In this document: piece after piece, positions 3,562-58,167 of the stretch | Numbering within the stretch: the stretch's first letter is position 1 | Layout: every line of letters starts with the position of its first letter | Origin: a bacterium | Lineage (GTDB): Bacteria > Vulcanimicrobiota > Xenobia > Xenobiales > Xenobiaceae | Direction of reading: 5' to 3' | Length of the DNA: 64,000 nt | Assembly (NCBI GenBank): GCA_017458675.1 | Contig: JAFTAM010000176.1 | Span: forward strand, 2,282 to 66,281 | The notes under the pieces: model-generated | The model's input: the letters and a program-made list of their open reading frames with translations, nothing else | The model's database searches: none | Told to the model about the DNA's origin: nothing | Translations under genes and position numbers: made by a program

Positions 3562-4950
3562 GTGCACACTAAAAAAAGCGCCAGAAAATTTGCTTTCATA
3601 TTTACTTTAGCCGTATCGCTCATTCTATTTTTAGGCGTCAACCTGACCGGCTGCGGAACCAGCGGTACGGTCGCTCCGGCCGTTTTGCCCACAGTTGAGC
3701 CTACGGTTGAGCCCACCGACGAACCTACGGTCGAACCCACCGAAGAACCTACTGACGAGCCCACGGTCGAACCCACCGAGGAACCGACCGACGAGCCCAC
3801 GGCCGAACCCACCGACGAGCCCACCGAGGAGCCCACGGCCGAACCCACCGACGAGCCCACCAGCGAACCCACCGACGAGCCCACGACCGAGCCTACGGCC
3901 GATCCCACCGACGAACCCACGGCCGATCCCACCGAAGAACCTTCCGCCGTTGAGGTATCCTTAAGCGCTTTCGAATACGATCAGCTCACCGGCGAAGTCA
4001 CTTTCAATTCCGATTCCACGCTGGCCAAGATGGGCTACACCGGCACGGCCGAGAAGGACGAAGACGAAAAGTGGGTGGCCCACATTTATCAGAGCGCGGC
4101 CGTGAGCGGCAAAACCGTCAGGGACGGCGAGGAAGCCGTAACCGATCTGGAAATCCCCGAAAACTTTGAGTACGACGGAACCGCCTACAGAATAACCTCA
4201 ATTGACGACGACGCTTTCTGCTTCTGCAAGGATTTAAAAACGGTCGCCATGCCCGCGAGCCTCACCGCCATCGGCGACAGATCTTTCTATCACTGCATGG
4301 CCTTAACCGCCATCGATATCCCCGAAGGCGTAACCTCTGTAGGCCAGGAGGCTTTTGAGGACTGCATCGCCGCCAAGTCGCTGACCCTTCCCTCTACTCT
4401 TACTTCCATAGGCCAGGCCGCTTTCAAGGCCTGCTACCTGATTCCCGCCGTAACCCTCCCCGAAGGCTTGACCGCCATCGAGCCCAGCACTTTCGAGACG
4501 TGCATAATGCTGGAAGAAGTTACGTTCCCCTCGACGGTCGCAATTATCGGCGAACGCGCCTTTTTCGGATGCAATCAGAAACTGGCCGCCGTTGATATTC
4601 CCAACGGCGTTGAAACTATCGGCGCCGAGGCTTTCCAAATGTGTTCGAAGCTGCAGATGGTCTCTATAGCCGGAACCGTAACTGAAATAGGCGAAAACGC
4701 CTTCATGTCAACCGGTTTAAAGATGCTCGTTCTTTCCGAAGGTATTGAGACTATAGGCGAGATGGCTTTCTACAACAACGACTTAACCGCCGTAGCCATT
4801 CCCTCTTCAGTCACCTCTATTGGCAAGAACGCATTGGCGATGAATTTTGATCTGGCGACAGTCACCTGGAAGGGGAACGAATATACCGACAACGCCGAAT
4901 TCAATCAAGCCCTCAAAGACGCCGGTATAGCCACCGACGACGTCTGGTAA
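3562..4950 (+). CDS. Surface lipoprotein with Pro/Thr-rich repeat linker and BspA-type leucine-rich repeats (LRR_5-like)
   Basis: GTG start 6 nt after GGAGG. Signal peptide with lipobox (NLTGCGTSG). The linker is (EPTD/EPTE/EPTA)n. There are repeated ~23-aa units of the form IPxGVTxIGxxAFxxCxxLxxVxxP, typical of BspA/TpLRR surface proteins. Confidence 0.7.
   Translation: MHTKKSARKFAFIFTLAVSLILFLGVNLTGCGTSGTVAPAVLPTVEPTVEPTDEPTVEPTEEPTDEPTVEPTEEPTDEPTAEPTDEPTEEPTAEPTDEPTSEPTDEPTTEPTADPTDEPTADPTEEPSAVEVSLSAFEYDQLTGEVTFNSDSTLAKMGYTGTAEKDEDEKWVAHIYQSAAVSGKTVRDGEEAVTDLEIPENFEYDGTAYRITSIDDDAFCFCKDLKTVAMPASLTAIGDRSFYHCMALTAIDIPEGVTSVGQEAFEDCIAAKSLTLPSTLTSIGQAAFKACYLIPAVTLPEGLTAIEPSTFETCIMLEEVTFPSTVAIIGERAFFGCNQKLAAVDIPNGVETIGAEAFQMCSKLQMVSIAGTVTEIGENAFMSTGLKMLVLSEGIETIGEMAFYNNDLTAVAIPSSVTSIGKNALAMNFDLATVTWKGNEYTDNAEFNQALKDAGIATDDVW
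3695..3930 (+). repeat. In-frame 12-nt period coding tandem repeat (EPT[DEA] units) inside the LRR lipoprotein gene
   Basis: About 20 consecutive gaNcccacNgaNgaNcc units read directly in the sequence. This explains the spurious antisense and alternate-frame ORFs 3498-3932(-) and 3695-3964(+). Confidence 0.8.
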
Positions 4951-5077
4951 TTATTGTCCGCCTTTTTTCATTACAGATCCTTCGCCGGAGGCTCAGGATG
5001 ACAGATATACCGGCTCAATATAACGCCAAACTTTGTCATTGAGAGCGAAGCGAAGAATCTATGCCTTTATAGACCAA

Positions 5078-5124: not shown

Positions 5125-5334
5125 GCCTCTTTCCGTGCAGCGAACAACGCCAAACCTTGTCATTCTGAGCGAAGCGAAGAATCTATACCTGTTTACAATA
5201 AAGACCCTTCGACAAGCTCAGGGTGACATGAGAGACAGGCTCCGGGTCATAAAATACTCTTGGCCGGAGACATGTCTAAGCACTAAGATTTGTCATTCTG
5301 AGCGAAGCGAAGAATCTATGCCTTTATAGACCAA

Positions 5335-5555: not shown

Positions 5556-5691
5556 ATTTTAGGGCGGCGGCCCCAATCCCAGGAAAGCTTTTGCCTATTT
5601 TTGCCGAAAACAGCACTTTCGGCCAAAAAATTTTACGATCTCACACTCCCCTGCGAAGAAAATTTTCAGCTATATGAAAGGAGAACGCTTA

Positions 5692-7152
5692 ATGAAGAAA
5701 ACAAAATCAGCCCGAAGGCTATGCAGCATTCTGTTTGCCTGGATGCTGACGCTGATTGCTGTATGCGCTTCAGCCTGCAGCCACAGCGGAGATATTTCCA
5801 CCCATCCTAGTTTGGATAAAGCTACCCTGAAGGTAACGATGGGGGAAGAAAAAGTTGAGGCCAGGAGCCTCGCTCCGGCAGACGCCGTCAAATACAGAAT
5901 TTATCTGTTTGACAAAGACGGCGCCCGCGTAGACGAGTTCAGTTTCGCAGCCGAAGGACAGACCAACAAGGAATTTAATTACGAATACACCGAAAACGGC
6001 GACAGCCGTGAAATGATTGTCAAGACCGGCGCTCTGACCGCCGAGTCCATGCGGGTCGCCTGCTATAACAGCGCCGGAAAATATATGGGCTCAGGCCTGG
6101 TCGGCGGCATGAAGCTGGAGGCTTACAAGTATTATTCCTTCGACAACACTTCCGAAAGAGACAACAGCTTTGATTATCTCTCCGCCGAAGACGAAGCTAT
6201 CGAGGGAGAGCTGTTCGTCACCGCCGAGCCTTCGGTAATAGCCGTGGGTGAAAAAGCCGAGCTCAAGGCCTTCTACACCAACCCCGACGGATTCACCGAA
6301 GACGTCACCGAGAATAACGCTCTCAAGCTGGAGACCGATTCGGAGAATATCGAATTGAACGGTCACCAAGTTACCGGCCTGGCCGACGGCGCGGCTATCG
6401 TCGCCGCCACTTTAACTTTAACCCCCAGCGTTCAGATGGCCTCCTCGGTAAACGTCACCGTCGGAGAGCGCGCGCCATCTTACAGCTTCCTGCGCAAGGT
6501 TGACGGCAAGTACACAGTAATCAATTCTCTGCTCTTGGACAGAAACGAGTCTCTGGAAGCTGAAATAGCTTACGGTTACATAGACGATAACGGCAATGCC
6601 GAGATCTTTGCCGGCAAATACGCCGCCAGAACCTATACGGGCGATGCTTCCAACGGTTTCCTGACAGTTTCCCCCGCCGACGTGAGTACTGAATCCTGCC
6701 TGGTAACGGCCGACCTCTCTAAAGAGCAGAACGGCGACTACGTCTACTTCGAGCCCGACGACTGTCCCGGCGTTATCTGCGCCAGCCTGCCGGTGGCCAT
6801 TGTCAACGGCGGAGGCAGCCGCGGCGCCGTAGAGCACTCATTCCTGGAGAAACTCGAAGACGGCAGCTATAAGCCCATCGACGCCCTTTTCTTCAGCCAG
6901 CAAGTCAAAACTAAAACCGTCGCTTACGGCGATATCGACGAAAACGGCGAGGTCAAGCTCTATAACGCCAAATTCGAGGCCAGAGATTGCTTCGAAGATC
7001 CCAACGGCTATATTACCGTAACTCCCTCGGGAAGCGAGACCAAGGAATGCACGGTGGTTATCGATACCGATAAACCCGCAAACTGCAATTACCTTTACTG
7101 CGAGCCCGATTATCCCCGCATAATCTGCGCCAGTCTGCCCGTTATCTACTAA
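5692..7152 (+). CDS. Lipoprotein with bacterial Ig-like (Big_2-type) domain and internal duplicated C-terminal modules
   Basis: AAAGGAGAA RBS before ATG 5692 (track start 5674 is 6 codons upstream). Signal/lipobox region LIAVCASAC. The central segment VTAEPSVIAVGEKAELKAFYT...VTGLADGAAIVAATLT resembles Big_2. There is a repeated motif YVYFEPDDCPGVICASLPV / YLYCEPDYPRIICASLPVIY. A terminator hairpin follows. Confidence 0.55.
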   Translation: MKKTKSARRLCSILFAWMLTLIAVCASACSHSGDISTHPSLDKATLKVTMGEEKVEARSLAPADAVKYRIYLFDKDGARVDEFSFAAEGQTNKEFNYEYTENGDSREMIVKTGALTAESMRVACYNSAGKYMGSGLVGGMKLEAYKYYSFDNTSERDNSFDYLSAEDEAIEGELFVTAEPSVIAVGEKAELKAFYTNPDGFTEDVTENNALKLETDSENIELNGHQVTGLADGAAIVAATLTLTPSVQMASSVNVTVGERAPSYSFLRKVDGKYTVINSLLLDRNESLEAEIAYGYIDDNGNAEIFAGKYAARTYTGDASNGFLTVSPADVSTESCLVTADLSKEQNGDYVYFEPDDCPGVICASLPVAIVNGGGSRGAVEHSFLEKLEDGSYKPIDALFFSQQVKTKTVAYGDIDENGEVKLYNAKFEARDCFEDPNGYITVTPSGSETKECTVVIDTDKPANCNYLYCEPDYPRIICASLPVIY

Positions 7153-7195: not shown

Positions 7196-7275
7196 AGCCG
7201 GGACGTTCAGTTTCAGCGAACGCCGGGCTTCAATCAATCATGCGGGCATTTCAGGCCCGGTTTTCAGGAGGAAAT

Positions 7276-8298
7276 ATGTCCAAAACCGCATCCGTTTATT
7301 ATGCAGCGGCTATGTCCTTAGCTTTGGCCGGAATGTGCTGCGCGCTGCCCGCGCAGGCCGACGGAGACGACGCGCCCCCGGCCGCGGCTCAGGAGACCCG
7401 GATCGAAGAGAACAACGAGAACGCAGAAGTTCAGGAAGAAAACGCCGAAAAGGAAGGCGAAGAAGCTGCGGCTCAGGCGCTGCCGGAAAATATTCAGATC
7501 GAATTCAAAAACGAAGGCGATTACGTAATTCAGCCCGACAGCATGGCCTACCACAATTTTACCACCTTCATTTACAACGATTTCGACTACTTCCTCAGGC
7601 GCGATCCCCGCATTGTCAAAGCCTGTCTGGGAACCGGCGACAATATCGATATGACCCAGAAGATGAACGAATACTTCGACAAAGAGGAAGAACTGACGGA
7701 AATCAGCGAAGTCATCTTCCAGCGCATCGTCGGCCTCGACAGAGGCTGGCCTGCCCGGATGCACTTCGAGGAGACCAGCGCTCAGCCCAATATCAGTCTT
7801 TTGGGCGTCAATCAGAACGTGCTCTATAAAATTGTCAATTTCTGGAGCGGCAGAGGCTTTGAAAATTACCGCGAAGAGTACATGCGCCCCTACCGCGAAG
7901 GCGAATTCCGCTTCACCGAAAAGTTCAGGGCCCAGGTCCGCGAGCGGAAAGGCAACGGCTTGAGAGGCTGGACCAAGAAAATGAGCCTGGCCGATCTGAG
8001 TATCTGCGCGGCTTCCACCCCTATCGCCATCTTTATGGATACTGACGAAAAGCGCATCCGCGAGCGCAACGCCTGGATGCCTACTCCGCTCGAAGACTTC
8101 ATGTACTACAGTTCCCGCCACAGCTTCCCCTACGTCGGCTTCCTCGATTACAGCCTGAAGTTCTTTGACGAAAACGGGAAAGAGCTCGATATCGCCGCCG
8201 GCGAGCGCATGCCGGCCAAAGGCGGAAAGATCATCTGCTCCTGGGACAAGCTTACCCTGTTTGAGCTCGACGATATCATTAAAGCCGACAGGAACTGA
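7276..8298 (+). CDS. Secreted hypothetical protein
   Basis: GGAGG RBS then ATG 7276 (MSKTASVYYAAAMSLALAGMCCALPAQA signal peptide). Acidic N-terminal region. No recognisable catalytic motifs. Terminator follows. Confidence 0.5.
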   Translation: MSKTASVYYAAAMSLALAGMCCALPAQADGDDAPPAAAQETRIEENNENAEVQEENAEKEGEEAAAQALPENIQIEFKNEGDYVIQPDSMAYHNFTTFIYNDFDYFLRRDPRIVKACLGTGDNIDMTQKMNEYFDKEEELTEISEVIFQRIVGLDRGWPARMHFEETSAQPNISLLGVNQNVLYKIVNFWSGRGFENYREEYMRPYREGEFRFTEKFRAQVRERKGNGLRGWTKKMSLADLSICAASTPIAIFMDTDEKRIRERNAWMPTPLEDFMYYSSRHSFPYVGFLDYSLKFFDENGKELDIAAGERMPAKGGKIICSWDKLTLFELDDIIKADRN

Positions 8299-8411: not shown

Positions 8412-8530
8412 GAAAGATTCTTCGCTTCGCTCAGAATAACAGACGTTTACGTCCTTGGACAAGTTTATATCATACTAAACCGCATTTTATGTCATCCTTG
8501 AGCCGCGTTTTATGTCATCCTGAGCCGACA
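8412..8530. repeat. Core unit (8412-8443) plus two tandem GCATTTTATGTCATCCTGAGCCG units
   Basis: GAAAGATTCTTCGCTTCGCTCAGAATAACAG, then CGCATTTTATGTCATCCTTGAGCCG and CGTTTTATGTCATCCTGAGCCG. Confidence 0.75.
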
Positions 8531-8613: not shown

Positions 8614-10248
8614 TCAGTCATTAGGAATAGGGGGAATGCTTCTTCTAACCGCAGACTGATTATCGGCGGCAGGCATCTCGGCGGTACGAAAAGCCGACCT
8701 GGGCTTCGGCGCCTCAGAAATCTCAGGCATATAATCAGCCTTGCCGTCAGCGCCCGACAATTTTGCGCTCCCTTCAGCCGCCGATCCGCCGTCGGTTTCC
8801 TTTAAGGGAAGCGAAAAATCGGGCTCAGGATGTACCGCCGCGCCTTCAGCTCCGCCCTCAGCCTCTGCGGCTTCCAAATCGGCCTTCGTGATTCTGCTTG
8901 TATCCGAAGCGGCGGCCTGAAGCTTATCATCCCGGCTTTCCGCCGCGGCCGAAATATCCGCCGAGGCGCCGCCTTTCTCCAAAACGGCACGCTCAGAAGC
9001 GCCTGCGCCGCCGTTTTCGTCAGAATCTCCGCACTCTTCGTCCTCGGCGGCCTCTTCACCGTCGGCGTATTCCCCGTCGTCGGCGTACTCTTCGTCGTCG
9101 GCGGCCTCTTCGTCCTCAGCGTGTTCTTCGTCCTCGGCGTACTCTTCGTCCTCGGCGTACTCCTCATCCTCGGCGTACTCTTCGTCCTCGGCGTACTCTT
9201 CGTCGTCGGCGGCCTCTTCGTCCTCAGCGTGTTCTTCGTCCTCGGCGTACTCTTCGTCCTCGGCGGCCTCTTCGTCCTCGGCGTACTCTTCGTCCTCGGC
9301 GTACTCTTCGTCCTCGGCGTATTCTTCGTCCTCGGCGGCCTCTTCGTCCTCGGAGGCCTCTTCGTCCTCGGCGTATTCTTCGTCCTCGGCGTACACTTCG
9401 TCCTCGGCGCACTCTTCGTCCTCGGCCTCTTCGTCGGCGGATGATTCTGGGGCGGCGTCCCTCTCATACCCTGGGAAAACAGGCTCGGGAGCGATACTGT
9501 GCGGCTCGCCATCCTCCGCTTCGCCTCTCTCGGCAGGCAAAACTGAAAGCGATTCCCGCAGCTCTCTTTCAACCGCAAGCGCCTCTTCGCTCAAAGTAAC
9601 CTGCTCCTGCAGATCGTTGACCTGATCGCGCAGAGACCAGATTTCCTCCTGATCGTCGGCATTTTTATCGGATAAAGCCTGACGCAGCGCCTCAAAATTG
9701 ACGCTGATTTCTTCCCAGCGTCCCCGCCAGTAGGCGGCCTCGTCCCTCTGACCGTCAAGCTCCTCGCGAAGCTCCTTAATTTCCGCCTGCAGCTCCTGAC
9801 AACGCTCCGTTAACTGACTGAGCCGCTCTTTATAAACGCCGTTTTCCGAAGAAAGAGCCGCAATTTTATCCGTCAGTCCGACAGAAATCTCCGCCGGAGG
9901 CAGCGCCGCATTTACAGGCTCGGGAGCGTTCAGCAGAGGTTCTGGACAGGGCTGCGCCTGGACCGCAGCTTCTGTCTCCGCAGAGCAGGACGCCTGAGCC
10001 TCACCGCCGGCAGGCAGAGGGCCGCTTAAAGCGGGCGTCTCCGCGCTGACTGAGCTTTCCCGGCGGCGGCGCTTGAGCATGAGCTTGGGAAGCTCGCTTT
10101 TATAAATTTCCCAATGCTTGCCGCGTCCGTCAATACAAATAATGCCCCGGATCTCTCCGGAATTTATGCGGCGGTAAATAGTAGGCAGGGAGACCCCCGT
10201 CAGTTCCACCGCCTCCTGAATAGATATGCGTTCACGCTCGCCGGCCAC
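8614..10248 (-). CDS. DNA-binding HTH (excisionase/MerR-like) protein with coiled-coil region and long polyacidic EDEEYA repeat tail
   Basis: GTG start with GAGGA RBS. The N-terminus ISIQEAVELTGVSLPTIYRRINSGEI is an HTH_17-like helix-turn-helix. A heptad-rich segment follows (LSQLTERCQELQAEIKELREELD...). Then about 20 copies of EDEE[YAH]A (Asp/Glu greater than 60 percent over ~130 aa). Confidence 0.65.
   Translation of the reverse strand: MAGERERISIQEAVELTGVSLPTIYRRINSGEIRGIICIDGRGKHWEIYKSELPKLMLKRRRRESSVSAETPALSGPLPAGGEAQASCSAETEAAVQAQPCPEPLLNAPEPVNAALPPAEISVGLTDKIAALSSENGVYKERLSQLTERCQELQAEIKELREELDGQRDEAAYWRGRWEEISVNFEALRQALSDKNADDQEEIWSLRDQVNDLQEQVTLSEEALAVERELRESLSVLPAERGEAEDGEPHSIAPEPVFPGYERDAAPESSADEEAEDEECAEDEVYAEDEEYAEDEEASEDEEAAEDEEYAEDEEYAEDEEYAEDEEAAEDEEYAEDEEHAEDEEAADDEEYAEDEEYAEDEEYAEDEEYAEDEEHAEDEEAADDEEYADDGEYADGEEAAEDEECGDSDENGGAGASERAVLEKGGASADISAAAESRDDKLQAAASDTSRITKADLEAAEAEGGAEGAAVHPEPDFSLPLKETDGGSAAEGSAKLSGADGKADYMPEISEAPKPRSAFRTAEMPAADNQSAVRRSIPPIPND
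9040..9420. repeat. 18-nt period tandem repeat (coding, minus-strand EDEEYA units)
   Basis: Direct reading shows ggcgtactcttcgtcctc-like units repeated about 20 times. This generates the Arg-rich and Val/Leu-rich artefact ORFs 8802-9578, 8830-9444, 8898-9599 and 9224-9412. Confidence 0.85.
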
Positions 10249-10376
10249 TGCAGTTAATCCTCACAACCGTAATTATTAAGTCGGAATTATATTTCAATTT
10301 GTTCCGCTTCCGTTATTCTATCAATTTAATTATCCTTTTACAACCTGGCTAAAGATAAATAAACAACTGACGAAAG

Positions 10377-11291
10377 CTACAGATTAACGGAAACGTCTCC
10401 CATAGTTATAATTCGTTCCGAAAAGGCGTGGCTGCCGTCCTCCCGCCATTCCGGAACCTGCAGCTGCAAAGCCCCGTTTTCGGCTATTCCCTTGGTAAAA
10501 CCGTACACGGTGTTCTGATCATTAAAGCAGAACTTTTTTCCGCTCTCCCAGAGCGCCATAATCTCCGCCAGTTCTTCGGAGCGGAACTCCATGCGTCCGG
10601 CCTCTCCGTCGCTTTCCGCCGCTTCAGGTCTGATATTTATCTTGATAAATTTGTCTCTGTGCAGGCAGCGCCCGTACCATTCCGAGGCCAGAGCGACAAA
10701 ACCGCGGGAGGAAAGCTCGGAGCAAATCCCATAAAGGCTCTCTCCTACCGCTGTAAATACCTCCTCCGGCTCCAGCAGCAGTCCTGCAGCTTCAGCAAAA
10801 GACGAAGCCAGAAGGCGCAGATTATCGTCCGCCTCTATCCTGCGAAGATTGAGACCGACGCCGACTATAACTCCCGACGGCCTGCCGCCCTCCGTCGCCA
10901 GTTCGCAGAGAATGCCGCCGACCTTACCGTCCTCAGCCCAAATGTCGTTGGGCCATTTCAGGCTCAAGGGAGAGACGTTCTCCGTTCCGCCGCGGAGCCT
11001 GTAAAGCCTGTCCATGGCCCTTATGACCGCCAGCCCCGCCGTCAGAGGCAGAACGCTGAGCTGCTCCGGCCTCAGCAGGCCGGCTTTAAGATCTATCCAA
11101 TAGCTGGCCGTCAGACCGCCTCGGCAGCTGTGCCAGGAGCGGCTTCCCCGCCCGCGTCCGGCCGTCTGAACTTCAGCCATCAGACTGTAGCCGGGAGAGA
11201 CGGACCCTGCGGCCGCCAGACGCTTTAAATAACTGTTGGTGGAATCCGTTTCCGCTACCGTATGGAAATGAGGTTTAACGTTATTATACAT
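10377..11291 (-). CDS. birA: Biotin--[acetyl-CoA-carboxylase] ligase, group I (no N-terminal HTH)
   Basis: AAGGA RBS. Has ETDSTN, QTAGRGRGSRSW (the BirA GRGRRGR biotin-binding loop) and KWPNDIW...GGILCE motifs. Begins directly at the catalytic domain. Divergent from the biotin-dependent decarboxylase operon. Confidence 0.8.
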   Translation of the reverse strand: MYNNVKPHFHTVAETDSTNSYLKRLAAAGSVSPGYSLMAEVQTAGRGRGSRSWHSCRGGLTASYWIDLKAGLLRPEQLSVLPLTAGLAVIRAMDRLYRLRGGTENVSPLSLKWPNDIWAEDGKVGGILCELATEGGRPSGVIVGVGLNLRRIEADDNLRLLASSFAEAAGLLLEPEEVFTAVGESLYGICSELSSRGFVALASEWYGRCLHRDKFIKINIRPEAAESDGEAGRMEFRSEELAEIMALWESGKKFCFNDQNTVYGFTKGIAENGALQLQVPEWREDGSHAFSERIITMGDVSVNL

Positions 11292-11472: not shown

Positions 11473-11808
11473 ATGATTACTCAAGGTCTAATCATAACAG
11501 CCGTAGGCATGATCGGGGTGTTTTTATTCCTGATAGTTCTGGTATATGTCACTGACTATTCCAGCAAAATCATAGCAAAACACTTCCCGGACAAGCCCGC
11601 TCCGACGCCTGCCAAGAAGGCTGCGGCCCCGGCTAAGCCGGCTCCGGCGCCTGCCGTTCCAAAACCGGCTGCCAATATGGACAAAATTGCGGCCGTTATT
11701 GCCATCGCTCAGCGCGAGCTTCAGCTGCCGACCCCAACGGTAAGCGGAGATAAGGTGGCGGCGGTCATTGCCATCGCTCAGCGCGAGATGGGAATACCCG
11801 TCAAATAA
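11473..11808 (+). CDS. oadG: Oxaloacetate decarboxylase gamma subunit-like (single TM helix plus Ala/Pro-rich linker)
   Basis: N-terminal TM helix (LIITAVGMIGVFLFLIVLVYV). Ala/Pro-rich linker (PAPTPAKKAAAPAKPAPAPAVPKPA). C-terminal duplicated AAVIAIAQRE motif. Position upstream of oadA. Weak RBS. Confidence 0.55.
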   Translation: MITQGLIITAVGMIGVFLFLIVLVYVTDYSSKIIAKHFPDKPAPTPAKKAAAPAKPAPAPAVPKPAANMDKIAAVIAIAQRELQLPTPTVSGDKVAAVIAIAQREMGIPVK

Positions 11809-11868
11809 AAGGCTGTCCTCTGTTATTCTTCCGTATTTTTTTTGTAATGTAATCCCCAAGGAGCAGTT

Positions 11869-13779
11869 ATGGGTAAAAAAGTTATCGATTTCATGTGCAC
11901 CGCCTTCCGCGACGGTTTTCAGTCCTGTTACGGCGCGCGCGTTTTAAACCGAGATTTCCTTCCGGCTATGGAAGCCTGCAAGGACGCGGGTATTAAGTGG
12001 TTTGAGCACGGCGGCGGCGCCATCTTCCAGTCAAAAGTATTTTACTGCAACGAGAATCCTTTTGACGCCATGGACGAAATCCGCACGCGCATGGGTCCGG
12101 ACGTCAACCTGCAGACCTTGGCCCGAGGCGTAAACGTGGTCGGCTTAGTCAGCCAGAACAGCGAATTTATCAAAATGCACGCTCAGCTCTTCAAAAAGCA
12201 CGGCGTGACCACCATCCGCAACTTTGACGCTCTCAACGACGTCAACAACTTAATCTACAGCGGAAAATGCATCGTCGACGCCGGTCTGAAGCATCAGTGC
12301 ACCATAACTCTTATGGGTCTGCCTCCGGGGCTTTCCGGCGCTCACACTCCCGATTTCTACGAGGGCATACTCCGCAAAATTTTAGCGGCCGGAATTAAAT
12401 TCGACAGCCTCTGCTTCAAGGATGCCAGCGGCACCACCCCGCCCCGCATCGTCCACGAGACCGTCAAGCGCGCCCGCCAGATCTTAGGATCCGACGCTTA
12501 CATCGATTTCCACTCCCACTGCACGGCCGGCGGCGATATGACCTGCTACATGGCCGCCATTGAAGCCGGCGCCAACGCCGTAGACCTTTCTATCCAGCCC
12601 ATGTCCGGCGGCACCTCTCAGCCCGACGTTCTGACTATGTGGCACAACCTGCGCGACAGCGAATACACTCTGGATATCGACGTCAAGAAGATGCGCGAGG
12701 CCGAGGCCATCAGCCAGGAGTGCATGGAAAAATACATGCTGCCTCCCGAATCCCGCACCGTCATGCCCATCATCCCCTGGAGTCCCGTGCCCGGCGGCGC
12801 TCTGACCGCCAACACCCAGATGATGCGCGACAACAACGAGCTCCATCTCTTCCCCAAACTGGTCGACGCTATGAGCGAATGCGTGGCCAAGGGCGGCTTC
12901 GGAACCTCGGTTACGCCGGTCTCCCAGTTCTACATCCAGCAGGCCTACAGCAACGTCAAGAACGGTCCCTGGGCCAAAATTACCCAAGGCTACGGCAAGA
13001 TGGTGCTGGGCTACTTTGGACGCACTCCCCATAAGCCCGATCCGGAAATTCAGAAGCTGGCCTCCGAGCAGCTCAATCTTCCCATTACCGATAAGACCGT
13101 ACTGGAGATCAACGACGCCGACGAGAGCAAAAAGAGCGAAACCATTAAGAAGAAGCTCATCGAGAACTGCATTCCCGTCACCGACGAAAACCTCTTTATC
13201 GTCTCCGCCTGCGAAGAAAAGGGCATCTTCTTCCTCAAAGGCAAGGGCCACGTCAACGTGCGCTATAAGGAGACCGCCGCTCCCAAAGCCGCCGCTCCCG
13301 CTCCGGCTCCCGCGGCAGCTCCCGCCCCCGTCAGCATGGCGAAAGTTCCCAACAGCCTGCAGATCACCCTGGAAGGCGTACCCTACAACGTCACCGTCAA
13401 TAACGGCCGCGTCATAGTCAACGGCAAGGATTACGGATACACCGTAACCGCCTCCGGCGCTCCGGCTCCGGCCGCCGCTCCTGCGCCCGCCGCCGCGCCC
13501 GCTCCCGCCGCTGCTCCCGCGCCTGCTCCTGCAGCCGCGCCGGCAGCCGCTCCCGCCTCAGCCGGCGGTACGGCGGTCACCTCTCCCCTTCCCGGCACCG
13601 TGCTGCGCATCGTCGCTCCCGCCGGAACGGCCGTCAAGAACAATGAGACCATAATCATTGTGGAAGCCATGAAGATGGAAATGGAGATCAAATCCACCAA
13701 AGCCGGAACCGTCCGCTCCATCGAGGTCGAGCCCGGCGATCAGATCGCTGCCGAAGCCGTAGTAGCTTACATTGAGTGA
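11869..13779 (+). CDS. oadA: Oxaloacetate decarboxylase alpha subunit / pyruvate-carboxylase-subunit-B type carboxyltransferase with C-terminal biotinyl domain
   Basis: AAGGAG RBS. Has [15 protein letters not shown] (HxHxTxG), PGGALTAN and VTPVSQ motifs of the OadA/PycB carboxyltransferase TIM barrel. AAPAPAPAA linkers. Biotin attachment motif EAMKMEMEI near the C-terminus. Confidence 0.85.
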
Positions 13780-13786
13780 GGTAAAA

Positions 13787-15331
13787 ATGTCTGAACATAA
13801 ATCCGGCCGCTCTTATATGCGCAGCCTGTGGCTGAACCTGCTCTTCGGCTTGGTTTTGGCTTTTGCTTTTCAGACTCCGCTTTGGGCCGCTCCTTCGGAT
13901 AATCCCGAAGCTCCCCTAACTAATCAGGACGCCCGGCCGGCCGCTTCCGCTCAAGCAGATACGGACGGCTCCGTTTCGGCTCAATCCGAGCCGCGCAGGC
14001 CTTCGGCCCGGCCCTCCCGCCGCCACAGGCCCAGAAACATGAGCGGAGCGCCCTCTCAGGTGAGGCGCGGCGCCCGTCCCGAGCATCAGAGAAGAGACAG
14101 AAAGCAGCTGCACGACTCTCACCGCCGAGCCGAAAGAGATCACGCCGCTTCCACGGCCAAAGAGGTCGGCTCCTTCTCGGAAACGATGAGCGTACTGTGG
14201 AAATCGACCGGCCTTTCGGCCTTCTGCACGGGAGACGGCTACAAAAACCTGATTATGATCGGCGTCAGTCTGGTGCTTATCTATCTGGCCATAGCCAAGG
14301 GCTTTGAGCCTCTGCTGCTCCTGCCCATCGGCATAGGCGGCCTGCTCTCCAATATTCCCAACGCGGGAATCGCCGAAGAGGGCGGCTTCCTATACTACAT
14401 TTACGAGTTCGGCATCGACAAGGGCATCTTCCCTCTGCTGATCTTCATGGGCGTAGGCGCAATGACCGACTTCGGCCCCCTGATCGCCAACCCGCGGACC
14501 GCTCTGCTTGGCGGCGCCGCTCAGTTCGGCATCTTCTTCTCCCTGATAGGCGCTTTGGTGCTGTCTGAGTACATCCCCGGCATAAACTTCAACCTGCAGG
14601 ACGCCGCCAGCATCGGCATCATCGGCGGCGCCGACGGTCCCACGGCCATCTTCCTGACCAGCCGTCTATCCCCGCGCCTGCTGGGTTCCATAGCCGTGGC
14701 CGCCTACTCGTACATGGCTCTGGTTCCCATCATCCAGCCTCCCATCATGAAGGCCCTGACCACCGAAGAAGAGCGCAATATCGTCATGAAGCAGCTGCGC
14801 CCGGTCTCCAAGACCGAAAAGATCATCTTCCCCATTACGGTGATCTTGCTGTGCGCTCTGCTGCTGCCCTCGGCCGCTCCTCTGATCGGCTGCCTGATGT
14901 TCGGCAACCTGGCCCGCGAATGCGGCGCGGTCAACCGCCTCTCCGATACCATGCAGAACGCTCTGTGCAACATCGTCACCATTCTGCTGGGTACGACCGT
15001 AGGTTCCAAGCTGGCCGCCGACAAGTTCCTGACCCCCGAGACCCTAGGCATCCTGCTTCTGGGCCTGGTGGCCTTCTGCGTAGGCACCGCCGCGGGCGTG
15101 CTTCTGGCTAAGCTGATGAACAAGTTTACCAAAGACCCGATCAACCCGCTGATCGGTGCCGCCGGCGTTTCCGCCGTTCCCATGGCGGCCCGCGTGGTCA
15201 ACGGCGTGGGTCTGGAGACCAACCCCCGCAACTTCCTGCTCATGCACGCTATGGGCCCCAACGTCTCCGGCGTTATCGGCTCGGCCGTAGCGGCAGGTAT
15301 TCTGCTGGCCATGCTGGGCGGCGGCTTCTGA
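13787..15331 (+). CDS. oadB: Sodium-ion-translocating decarboxylase beta subunit (OadB/GcdB/MmdB family), with an unusual ~130-aa N-terminal extension
   Basis: The core from ~14186 (MSVLWKS...[28 protein letters not shown], ...[15 protein letters not shown]) matches beta-subunit signatures. The frame is open back to the ATG at 13787 (GAGG-type RBS, 8 nt after the oadA stop). That extension encodes a signal/TM-like helix plus a basic disordered stretch. The true start (13787 vs 14186) is uncertain. Confidence 0.75.
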
Positions 15332-15494: not shown

Positions 15495-15625
15495 ACAAAG
15501 ATCCTTCGCCTCACGGCTCAGGATGACAAAACGTCTGCCTTTGAAAACTCCGCTCGCCATTACGTCGCCGCTTTGTCATTCTGAACTTCCTGTCATTCTG
15601 AGCGCAGCGAAGAATCTATGTTCTT
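15495..15625. repeat. Core-unit cluster (GGCTCAGGATGACA; TGTCATTCTGAAC; TGTCATTCTGAGCGCAGCGAAGAATCTATG)
   Basis: Read directly at 15519-15535 and 15577-15620. Lies just after the oadB terminator. Confidence 0.8.
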
Positions 15626-16487: not shown

Positions 16488-16678
16488 CCGATATCATAAA
16501 GTTAAGGCAAAATATTGCTAACAAAGGTACATTAGCTTGTTTTACCAATGTTTGTAAATGTTTCTCCTGTCATTCTGAGCGCAGCGAAGAATCTATCAAT
16601 TACGTTCTGCGTGTTTTCGTAATGCCGGTTTTTATTAAGCATGGATGCTTAACTTCGCTTTTGCTTAGCTTACCGACA
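16488..16678 (-). repeat. Dispersed intergenic repeat, copy E (shorter, internal deletion)
   Basis: Reverse complement of CTGTCGGTAAGCTAAGCAAAAGCGAAGTTAAGCATCC...GATAGATTCTTCGCTGCGCTCAGAATGACAGG...TTGCCTTAACTTTATGATATCGG. Ends 30 nt upstream of the minus-strand start of 15702-16457. Confidence 0.8.
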
Positions 16679-26778: not shown

Positions 26779-27032
26779 CGGTAAGTTAAGCAAAAACAGG
26801 CTTTAAGCAGACATTCCTAATAAAGGTTTTCTTTGACGCGTACGCGGAGATTCGAGCGTAAGCGAGCGCGGAGCGGTAGCGACAAAGAAAACCGGCATAA
26901 CGAAAACAAGTTAAACATGCTTGAAAGATTCTTCGCTGCGCTCAGAATGACAGAAGAAACATTTACAAGCCTAATGCAGAGATACTCTTGTACCATTTTT
27001 AGCAAGTTATTGCCTTAACTATATGACATTGG
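26779..27032 (+). repeat. Dispersed intergenic repeat, copy A (full length ~250 bp)
   Basis: CGGTAAGTTAAGCAAAAACAGGCTTTAAGCA...core TTGAAAGATTCTTCGCTGCGCTCAGAATGACAG (26923-26953)...3' tail TTGCCTTAACTATATGACATTGG, ending 33 nt before the ATG of 27065. Confidence 0.85.
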
Positions 27033-54592: not shown

Positions 54593-55372
54593 ATGTTTAT
54601 TCCCGGTGCACCTTTTGGTCCCAATCCGTTCGGCGGTCCGTTCGGCATGGGCATGGGTATGATGGGTCCTGGCCCGCTCATGGGCGCAGGAACCGCTTTA
54701 GCCGGAGCCGCTACCCTGGCTTACGGCGTAGGCGCTCTTAACACCGCTATGCTGGGCGCCACTCTCGGCGGCGGAATGATGGGCTGCCCCCAGATGTCCA
54801 ATGGCATGGGCGGCTTTGCAGGTTCTGTCGTCGGTCAGGGAATCGGCGGACTCTTAGGCATGGGCTTAGGCTCTTCTATCGGCGGCCCTATGGGAATGGT
54901 CGGCGGCGGAATGCTCGGCTCGATCTTAGGCGGAGGTATCGGCGCCAAGATCGGTAATGACATGCAGCAGGCCAGACAGGCTTATCAGCAGCCTCCACAG
55001 CCCGGCCCCGAACCCGGCCCGGTCAGAAGCGATGAAGCTTCCAGTACCGTAGGCGACGCTCTTAAAGGCGCGGCTATCGGAGGCGCAATCGGTTTAGGCG
55101 CCGCTGCCATAGCCAACTCAGCCAGCGCCAGCTTCTTCCCGCCTCCTCCTCCGCCTCCCGGCGGTCCCTTCGGCGGTCCTTTCGGTCCCGGTCCCCGACC
55201 CGGCGGCCCCTTCGGCGGTCCCTTCGGTCCCGGTCCCCGACCCGGCGGCCCCTTCGGCGGTCCCGGTCCCCGTCCCGGCGGTCCCTTCGGCGGTCCCCAT
55301 CCTCACCACGGTCCTCATCCCGGCGGTCCCTTCGGCCCCGGTCCTCACCGCGGTCCCGGTTTTCCATTTTAA
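54593..55372 (+). CDS. Glycine-zipper / Pro-Gly-rich small protein, paralog 2
   Basis: Identical GGAGGATAACAAA leader. N-terminus MFIPGAPFGPNPFGGPFGMGMG. Same Gly-zipper block. C-terminal (GGPFGGPFGPGPRP)n. Terminator follows. Confidence 0.55.
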   Translation: MFIPGAPFGPNPFGGPFGMGMGMMGPGPLMGAGTALAGAATLAYGVGALNTAMLGATLGGGMMGCPQMSNGMGGFAGSVVGQGIGGLLGMGLGSSIGGPMGMVGGGMLGSILGGGIGAKIGNDMQQARQAYQQPPQPGPEPGPVRSDEASSTVGDALKGAAIGGAIGLGAAAIANSASASFFPPPPPPPGGPFGGPFGPGPRPGGPFGGPFGPGPRPGGPFGGPGPRPGGPFGGPHPHHGPHPGGPFGPGPHRGPGFPF

Positions 55373-56926: not shown

Positions 56927-57179
56927 CCGGTAAGTTAAGAAAAACAGGCTTTAAGCATACACGCTTAATAAAGGTTTTCTTTGACGCGTACGCGGAGATT
57001 CGAGCACAGCTTCGCGCGGAGCGGCAGCGACAAAGAAAACCGGCATAACGAAAACATGCAGAACATGATTGAAAGATTCTTCGCTGCGCTCTCAATGATA
57101 AGGGAAACACTCTTAAGCATATACAGACAAGCTTTTATGCCATTTTCGGCAAAATCTTGCCTTAACTATATAACATTGG
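56927..57179 (+). repeat. Dispersed intergenic repeat, copy C
   Basis: CCGGTAAGTTAAGAAAAACAGGCTTTAAGCATAC...GAAAGATTCTTCGCTGCGCTCTCAATGATAAG...CTTGCCTTAACTATATAACATTGG. Forms the right flank of the island, ~115 nt upstream of the HAD gene start. Confidence 0.85.
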
Positions 57180-57957: not shown

Positions 57958-58167
57958 TTATGCTTAGCAAATAATTGGGCTTTGCCTCATCATCCTGAGC
58001 GCAGCGAAGAATCTTTCAGCATGTTTTACATGTTTTCGCTGTGTCGGTTTTCTTTTGCACTTCGCTCCGCGCTCGCCGTAACCGGAGCTCGGACGCTCGC
58101 TTCAGAGCAAAACAAAACCTGTGTATAACATGTCTGCTTAAAGCCTGCTTTTGCTTAACTTACCGAC
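57958..58167 (-). repeat. Dispersed intergenic repeat, copy D (inverted orientation, between convergent genes)
   Basis: Reverse complement of GGTACTGTCGGTAAGTTAAGCAAAAGCAGGCTTTAAGCAGACATG...GAAAGATTCTTCGCTGCGCTCAGGATGATGAGG. Confidence 0.8.

Follow-up and report, generated by a model that had tools for sequence, protein, structure and literature searches.

Gene and expression signals

The stretch of 64,000 nucleotides analysed here, referred to below as the window, is part of contig JAFTAM010000176.1 (assembly GCA_017458675.1). On its minus strand, at 8614..10248, it carries a complete gene for a protein of 544 amino acids in which an N-terminal helix-turn-helix (HTH) domain is followed by a coiled coil and a long acidic tail with an array of 18-nt tandem repeats. 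The open reading frame (ORF), taken from the ORF list of the window, begins with GTG and ends with the TGA stop codon at 8614-8616. This is a real gene of an uncultured gut lineage, and its product is a predicted DNA-binding coiled-coil protein, for which a net charge of about -124 and a pI of ~4.05 were calculated. Overall, the preliminary description of the ORF, its domains and the repeat tract, made from the sequence alone, was confirmed.

The start codon is preceded at a distance of nine bases by the Shine-Dalgarno sequence GAGGA (10258..10262, minus strand), which was read directly from the sequence and is similarly placed upstream of the starts of the orthologues. The N-terminus of the window protein aligns with the N-termini of these orthologues, in agreement with the GTG start. 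A consensus scan additionally returned a promoter-like site at 10315..10343 (minus strand), a pattern match composed of TTGTAA, a spacer of 17 nt, and TAGAAT with TG, which falls inside the 128-bp gap between the upstream biotin ligase gene and the HTH gene.

Domain architecture

Residues 7-56 (10081..10230, minus strand) constitute a winged HTH (wHTH) of the excisionase/MerR type, as had been proposed for the N-terminus. Pfam HTH_17 (PF12728) matched residues 9-59 with 31.8 bits (cut-off 27, E = 1.8e-7), and the match to TIGR01764 ('excise') remained marginally under its cut-off (27.9 versus 28.8 bits). AlphaFold2 (AF2), supplied with an alignment of 20 family members, modelled residues 7-56 as a compact beta-alpha-alpha-beta-beta-alpha winged helix with a predicted local distance difference test (pLDDT) score of ~95. 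In a Foldseek comparison with the PDB the HTH alone was matched, with BldC, the MerR-type proteins CvkR and MtaN, the DNA-binding domain of RacA, and Pukovnik Xis as targets and target-normalised template-modelling (TM) scores of 0.5-0.73. The Pfam scan gave no match to the MerR profiles PF13411 and PF00376 and no effector domain. Furthermore, unlike in MerR regulators, where the dimerisation helix adjoins the HTH directly, a disordered linker of 64 residues parts the two elements in the window protein. This Ala/Pro/Glu-rich linker (residues 61-124, 9877..10068, minus strand) shows pLDDT values below 50 at residues 61-99, below about 60 up to residue 120 and of about 70 at residues 121-124, and it is not alignable among the orthologues.

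The predicted coiled coil also stood up to examination. A single helix of 111 residues (125-235, 9544..9876, minus strand) was modelled with a pLDDT of ~98, and one unbroken heptad register spans its entire length, with 69% hydrophobic residues at the a and d positions. Weak profile matches to bZIP, ZapB and SMC-type proteins agree with this assignment. Embedded in the helix is the family signature Y-W-R-G-R-W-E-E (residues 173-180, 9709..9732, minus strand), which was recognised in the family alignment: across the 20 family members, down to 23% identity, Y173, W174, G176 and R177 are invariant, and W178 and E180 nearly so. Trp174 and Trp178 sit on core d and a positions of the coiled coil, which is unusual, and this pair may be a sign of a particular mode of oligomerisation or of a binding site.

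For the tail (residues 240-544), the full-length model has pLDDT values below 50 over most of its length, with weak helices at residues 433-463. A charge-hydropathy calculation agrees with disorder of the tail. The Ser/Ala/Glu-rich segment that had been noted behind the repeats was found as described, its composition being rich in A, S, G, E and D. Searches against NCBIfam and PHROGs yielded nothing beyond the excisionase-type domain and generic coiled-coil noise.

The 18-nt tandem array

Tandem Repeats Finder (TRF) located the array at 9033..9426 (minus strand), with 21.9 copies of an 18-nt unit that encode (DEE[Y/A/H/C]AE)n, 85% matches, 0 indels, and a score of 550; it is by far the strongest tandem repeat in the window. 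Its units are translated as D-E-E-[Y/A/H/C]-A-[E/D] and lie within an acidic tract of 135 amino acids (residues 271-405, 9034-9438, minus strand) with 88 D/E, 12 Y and no K/R, which corresponds to a charge of -88, compared to +2.6 for the HTH segment. In the full-length AF2 model the array has a pLDDT of about 40 and no secondary structure, and its Uversky margin is +1.04. The claim of about 20 polyacidic repeats encoded by in-frame 18-nt units of one ORF thus stands, but their characterisation as near-perfect was an overstatement, given the match level and the fact that the 23 units counted comprise 13 different sequences, with the consensus itself represented just 6 times. Most of the variation falls on codon 4 of the unit (Y/A/H/C), and the codons for acidic residues hardly change. 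Exact repetition within the array extends over 78 nt at most, a run that derives from a higher-order duplication of 108 nt, i.e., of six units. As judged from the sequence, the unit variants and the 108-nt duplication point to recent growth of the array. Copy number may vary, and since the unit equals six codons, such changes would alter the length and charge of the tail and cannot switch the gene off by phase variation.

Tandem repeats are prone to misassembly, and the array or its copy number might accordingly be suspected to be an assembly artefact. We consider this very improbable. The 13 distinct unit sequences speak against it, as does the reading frame, which continues past the array into conserved C-terminal motifs. 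No exact repeat in the array exceeds 78 nt, a length below that of typical reads or of the largest k-mers of assemblers, so that a unique assembly path exists. Second copies from the same species were sought as well. An exact look-up of the window protein gave no match, and both the metagenome scan and the genome scan returned 49% identity at best, in the latter case although the sequence of the window itself fits the search pattern. The species of the window is thus represented in none of the collections searched. For the tail with its repeat, a comparison with 5.8 billion proteins produced 8000 word-sharing candidates, none of which was significant.

Reading of the repeats in other frames generates several spurious ORFs, including an Arg-rich one (RRTLRP...) at 8898..9599 on the plus strand, where the array is read on the opposite strand, and further Arg-rich or GVLFVL-type ORFs at 8830-9444 (plus strand), 8802-9578 (minus strand), and 9224-9412 (minus strand). 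Due to the presence of conserved motifs on either side of the array, with a PEPxF motif and the R-x-IPP motif downstream of it in the frame of the HTH, the coding frame is fixed and the ORFs in other frames are artefacts. The preliminary description had rightly dismissed such ORFs, but had placed them all on the reverse strand, whereas two of the four share the strand of the gene. In annotation, all four of these ORFs over 8802-9599, whether Arg-rich or of GVLFVL type, are to be treated as artefacts.

Family distribution and tail motifs

This uncharacterised family has very few members and is confined to a single lineage. The N-terminal 270 residues matched only six proteins among 5.8 billion clusters, and a profile search of 1.84 billion representatives retrieved about 18 full-length relatives, below which generic HTH_17 matches alone were found. 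According to a genome scan, the family occurs almost exclusively in metagenome-assembled genomes (MAGs) of the UBP9/Eremiobacterota type, one further bin being labelled Burkholderiales. Carriers are UBA4705, Hadza gut MAGs, the rumen genome RUG807, a 'Candidatus Eremiobacteraeota' bin, UBA6111, and UBA1432, with gut, rumen and digesters as habitats. The HTH and the sequence Y-W-[R/K]-G-R-W-E-E are common to all members.

In the gut clade 14 orthologous loci were extracted, each of which contains the protein as one ORF of 208-562 amino acids. No stop codon separates HTH, coiled coil and tail in any of the 13 tailed orthologues; the possibility that these parts are normally encoded by separate genes, raised in the preliminary description, is thereby answered. 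The tails of these 13 orthologues comprise 129-302 amino acids and are acidic (16-22% D/E), of low complexity and variable in length. As to whether the acidic tail is conserved, an acidic disordered tail is a feature of the clade, but the EDEEYA array is unique to the genome of the window. TRF detected no comparable tandem repeat in any of the orthologue genes, so the array represents a species-specific minisatellite expansion. As far as the searches show, the fusion of a polyacidic, Tyr-containing minisatellite to an HTH/coiled-coil family is unique; neither the HTH domain nor the overall architecture is new in kind. The tails of the orthologues are rich in indels even between close relatives: the N-terminal parts of the proteins of loci L003 and L005 are 78% identical, yet their tails align with 50 gap columns. 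The closest relative (L002/P0001) is tailless, with 206 amino acids as called and 208 from the first in-frame start, and so is the whole distant clade (about 190-250 amino acids).

Two types of short motifs were recognised in the tails. A motif scan found PEPxF twice in the window protein: APEPVFP (residues 253-259, 9472..9492, minus strand) is an extra copy upstream of the array, and HPEPDFS (residues 473-479, 8812..8832, minus strand) aligns with the YPEPDFG of orthologues. The pattern [Y/H]PEP[D/V/T]F is present in 13 of 13 tailed orthologues, as YPEPDFG, YPEPVFG or HPEPTFP. The second motif is a basic C-terminus, R-IPP-[L/I]-[R/K], shared by 11 of the 13, most of which end in ...KRGRKRIPPLR or KKRIPPIK; its counterpart in the window, identified by comparison with the orthologues, is RRSIPPIPND (8617..8646, minus strand). 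A likeness of R-IPP-L-R to FtsZ-tail-like or AT-hook-like peptides was considered and discarded as too loose to be claimed.

Genomic neighbourhood

Upstream of the HTH gene lies a gene encoding a biotin protein ligase (BPL) without an N-terminal repressor HTH (10377..11291, minus strand; Pfam BPL_LplA_LipB), which is followed in divergent orientation by an operon for the gamma, alpha and beta subunits of oxaloacetate decarboxylase (OAD; 11473-15331, plus strand). The alpha subunit gene contains an 18/36-nt repeat encoding an Ala-Pro linker at 13454-13556. The position of the biotin ligase gene upstream of the family gene was observed by tblastn in the window and in all gut-clade loci. The conserved gene order is OAD operon, BPL, family gene, and then a convergent gene for a tetratricopeptide repeat (TPR) protein. 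In the distant clade the biotin ligase gene is replaced by a leucyl-tRNA synthetase gene, so the link to biotin is probably just synteny. A role as biotin regulator, which the BPL neighbour might suggest, was downgraded for this reason.

The most persistent neighbour is the convergent downstream gene for the TPR protein of 620-740 amino acids, which was observed in every locus with enough flanking sequence, even for relatives with 23% identity. It is situated at 7153-9021 in L003, 6659-8875 in L011 and 884-2890 in L010 (all minus strand), and occurs likewise in L001, L004-L009, and L012-L019. The TPR protein is a candidate partner for the tail motifs. The corresponding place in the window is taken by unannotatable genes of secreted or surface type and by copies of a dispersed repeat. 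Two ORFs there lack a Pfam match, one of 492 amino acids (5674-7152, plus strand) and one of 352 amino acids (7240-8298, plus strand), and the latter begins with a signal-peptide-like sequence and includes a low-complexity segment of acidic character.

The family gene is chromosomal in every locus examined. No integrase was found near it, and a tblastn search of plasmid and phage collections returned no family match. Upstream of the starts in L003, L005-L008 and L015, AGATC[A/T] recurs two to three times at a distance of 30-60 nt (e.g., AAGATCA ... AAGATCAC). These motifs may be operator sites in the orthologues; they have no counterpart in the upstream region of the window gene.

Comparison with known systems

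With respect to the order of its domains, the window protein resembles RacA, the chromosome-anchoring protein of Bacillus subtilis. In RacA, a disordered segment links an N-terminal MerR-type wHTH to an oligomerising coiled coil with affinity for a partner (PMC4914108). The succession of wHTH, disordered linker and coiled coil is the same, and the DNA-binding domain of RacA is among the top fold matches. RacA differs by its length of 184 amino acids and by the lack of a long acidic tail, of the YWRGRWEE signature and of a tandem repeat. A search of the PDB with the family profile gave chance coiled-coil matches and a weak Xis match only, and no RacA. The same plan has been described for RocS, Par and RacA together, namely a wHTH head, a multimerising coiled coil, and a C-terminal region that contacts a partner or the membrane; the C-domains of RacA and Par are disordered, and RocS has a C-terminal amphipathic helix instead (PMC11500499). 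Their avidity for DNA rises as the coiled coils oligomerise, and through its C-terminal part the DNA-bound protein is attached to a partner or the membrane (PMC4914108, PMC11500499). They make up a class defined by architecture, not a single homologous family, and tethers of this class bind repeated centromere-like sites. RicO of Staphylococcus aureus likewise combines an N-terminal DNA-binding domain with a C-terminal amphipathic helix (bioRxiv 10.64898/2026.03.06.710092). A MerR-type wHTH, a coiled coil and a disordered C-terminal region are all present in the window protein. Nevertheless, RocS of Streptococcus pneumoniae, pSK1 Par, and RicO are Firmicutes proteins without detected homology to the family described here, and Pfam and NCBIfam gave no match to RacA, RocS (DUF536) or Par in the window protein. 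In contrast to RocS, Par and RicO, the family ends in a basic-IPP motif and not in a predicted amphipathic helix, and its tail is long and strongly acidic.

BldC of Streptomyces and phage Xis share the small wHTH fold and the Pfam family with the window protein (TM-score ~0.7, root mean square deviation 2.2-2.8 Å), but they are single-domain proteins of 50-70 amino acids that multimerise head-to-tail on DNA and possess neither linker nor coiled coil nor tail.

As regards the acidic tract, the disordered acidic tail of HMGB1 (PMC10250230) and the acidic C-terminal domain of Hfq (PMC5606850) autoinhibit in cis and tune nucleic-acid binding electrostatically. The window protein similarly carries a D/E-rich disordered region in cis with a basic HTH. 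Its tract differs from those of HMGB1 and Hfq in comprising 135 amino acids, compared to the 30 residues of the acidic tail of HMGB1 (PMC10250230), in being a tandem repeat at the DNA level with regular Tyr/Ala, and in its separation from the HTH by the coiled coil. The suggestion that the tract acts as a DNA mimic or as a histone-like chaperone tail is plausible only as an electrostatic analogy. DNA-mimic proteins such as Ocr and ArdA present their carboxylates on a folded scaffold, in a B-DNA-like array to which DNA-binding proteins bind, and because the tract is predicted to be disordered, it is unlike these folded bacterial and phage proteins. In its repeat dynamics, the array is reminiscent of Arp of Treponema pallidum, a protein with a Glu-rich tandem repeat that arises from a DNA minisatellite and varies in copy number among strains. 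The likeness is confined to these dynamics, as Arp has a 60-bp unit, neither HTH nor coiled coil, and a different cellular context.

Proposed function and alternative explanations

Since wHTH, linker, coiled coil and C-terminal region follow the arrangement of RacA, RocS and Par, we tentatively favour, at somewhat less than even confidence, a function as a dimeric or oligomeric DNA-binding adaptor that is chromosomally encoded, restricted to the lineage, and recruits a partner via its tail motifs. The coiled coil would pair two or more wHTH heads and thereby increase the avidity for DNA, and the tail motifs (PEPxF and the basic-IPP[L/I] C-terminus) would recruit a partner or a surface. The EDEEYA tract would represent a recent in-frame expansion of the 18-nt unit within a tail whose acidity and variable length predate it, adding the charge of about -88. 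Whether the protein is an adaptor or a plain transcription factor, the effect of the tract would most likely be electrostatic: as a fuzzy intramolecular competitor of DNA it could occupy the basic wHTH and thus cause autoinhibition or tune specificity, and as an extended, self-repelling spacer it could also hold the coiled coil and the C-terminal motifs apart.

Several observations weigh against the adaptor function. The link to RacA, RocS and Par consists in fold and domain order only, without sequence homology, and the Foldseek E-values of the HTH are weak (about 0.02), which is due to the shortness of the domain. The closest match in fold, BldC, acts as a transcription factor, so the HTH would fit a solely regulatory function just as well. 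Candidate binding sites were not found, and no operator- or centromere-like repeats were detectable in the upstream region of the window gene. The taillessness of L002/P0001 and of the distant clade indicates that the core function does not depend on the tail. The polybasic run at the C-terminus is largely lost in the window copy, in which R-x-IPP-[ILM] is kept, and the TPR gene is absent from the whole window (1-64000) as well as from L002. Due to the loss of most of the polybasic end and the absence of the TPR neighbour in the window, the tail may be degenerating and the array possibly neutral.

The chief alternative, given BldC as best fold match and the promoter-like site of the gene itself, is an ordinary BldC-/MerR-like transcription factor whose coiled coil is a dimerisation module and whose tail and array have no specific role. 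Such a factor could regulate itself or the adjacent genes for biotin ligase and oxaloacetate decarboxylase. MerR-type regulators follow BldC among the fold matches, the biotin ligase directly upstream lacks the repressor HTH of class II BirA proteins in all gut-clade loci, and the AGATC-type motifs recur upstream of the orthologues. On the other hand, the linkage to BPL is lost in the distant clade, the window has no operator-like repeat upstream of the gene, and neither a MerR match nor an effector domain was returned by Pfam. A disordered linker of 60-110 residues combined with a coiled coil of 110 residues is atypical for a simple repressor, as are conserved short motifs in a disordered tail of 130-330 residues. 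We regard this explanation as possible and rather unlikely. An identity as excisionase, i.e., as recombination directionality factor of an integrated mobile element, would account for the matches to HTH_17, TIGR01764 'excise', and PHROG 66 and for the likeness in fold to Xis of mycobacteriophage Pukovnik. This identity is effectively refuted and retains hardly any probability, because the protein has 544 amino acids and a coiled coil, the housekeeping synteny on the chromosome is conserved across genera, and the lack of a nearby integrase and of any phage or plasmid match indicates that the gene is not an excisionase. Consequently, 'excisionase' would be a wrong product name for 8614-10248.

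For the array alone, another explanation is a minisatellite expansion without any mechanism of its own, neutral or mildly deleterious under selection, which arose in a decaying tail and is tolerated because the region is disordered. This would fit the restriction of the array to the genome of the window, the dispensability of the tail in L002 and the distant clade, the eroded polybasic C-terminus and the lost TPR neighbour, and the indel-rich tails of the orthologues. It is less easily reconciled with a frame and two downstream motifs (HPEPDFS and RRSIPPI) that are intact after 394 nt of repeat, with variation concentrated at one codon while the acidic positions are almost invariant, and with a charge of -88 near a DNA-binding domain, which is unlikely to be without functional effect. 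Taken together, we judge neutrality to be unlikely. At the opposite end, and with still greater reserve, it may be speculated that the array works as an electrostatic module tunable by its length, whose copy number sets autoinhibition or the sequestration of basic nucleoid proteins or polyamines, the family being the RacA/RocS-type tether of the phylum with the TPR protein as partner. The array, built from a hypermutable minisatellite of 18-nt units, would then correspond in a prokaryote to the D/E-repeat tails of eukaryotes. Moreover, the Tyr residues that recur at regular intervals among Glu (poly-Glu/Tyr-like) might serve as a phosphorylation substrate.

If the adaptor function is right, the uncultured UBP9/Eremiobacterota-type lineage of the gut would have its first described candidate for a DNA-tethering or regulatory protein of the wHTH/coiled-coil kind. 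The family would then also offer an unusually clean natural series in which the same scaffold occurs tailless (L002), with a tail of ordinary acidity (most orthologues), and with an extra charge of -88 (window). Comparisons within this series could be used to examine the tuning of bacterial DNA-binding proteins by acidic disordered regions. The repeat in itself is a peculiarity of a single genome; it is a curiosity, no novel type of system, and the function considered for it here is put forward as a proposal.

Other repeats in the window

The dispersed element in the neighbourhood of the HTH gene has the sequence TCTGAGCG[A/C]AGCGAAGAATC and occurs in 9 copies within 3 mismatches in the window, compared to 0.03 expected. 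The copies are located at 5040-5059, 5164-5183, 5297-5316, 8416-8435 (minus strand), 15597-15616, 16574-16593, 26927-26946 (minus strand), 57075-57094 (minus strand), and 57994-58013. At least some of them are intergenic; the copy at 8416 lies between genes, just downstream of the HTH gene. The dispersed element is adjoined by a 23-nt tandem repeat of 2.9 copies (TTTATGTCATCCTGAGCCGCAT, 8464-8527), situated in the gap that separates the HTH gene from its convergent neighbour, the gene for the protein of 352 amino acids.

Further repeats were observed in the window. In the same neighbourhood as the HTH gene, a gene encoding a BspA-type leucine-rich-repeat surface protein (3562-4950, plus strand) contains 19 copies of a 12-nt unit at 3697-3941 that encode an 'EPTD' PT-repeat. 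At 55157-55344, overlapping tandem repeats with periods of 42, 33 and 75 nt are up to 96% identical and CCC/GGC-rich, and probably code for Pro and Gly.

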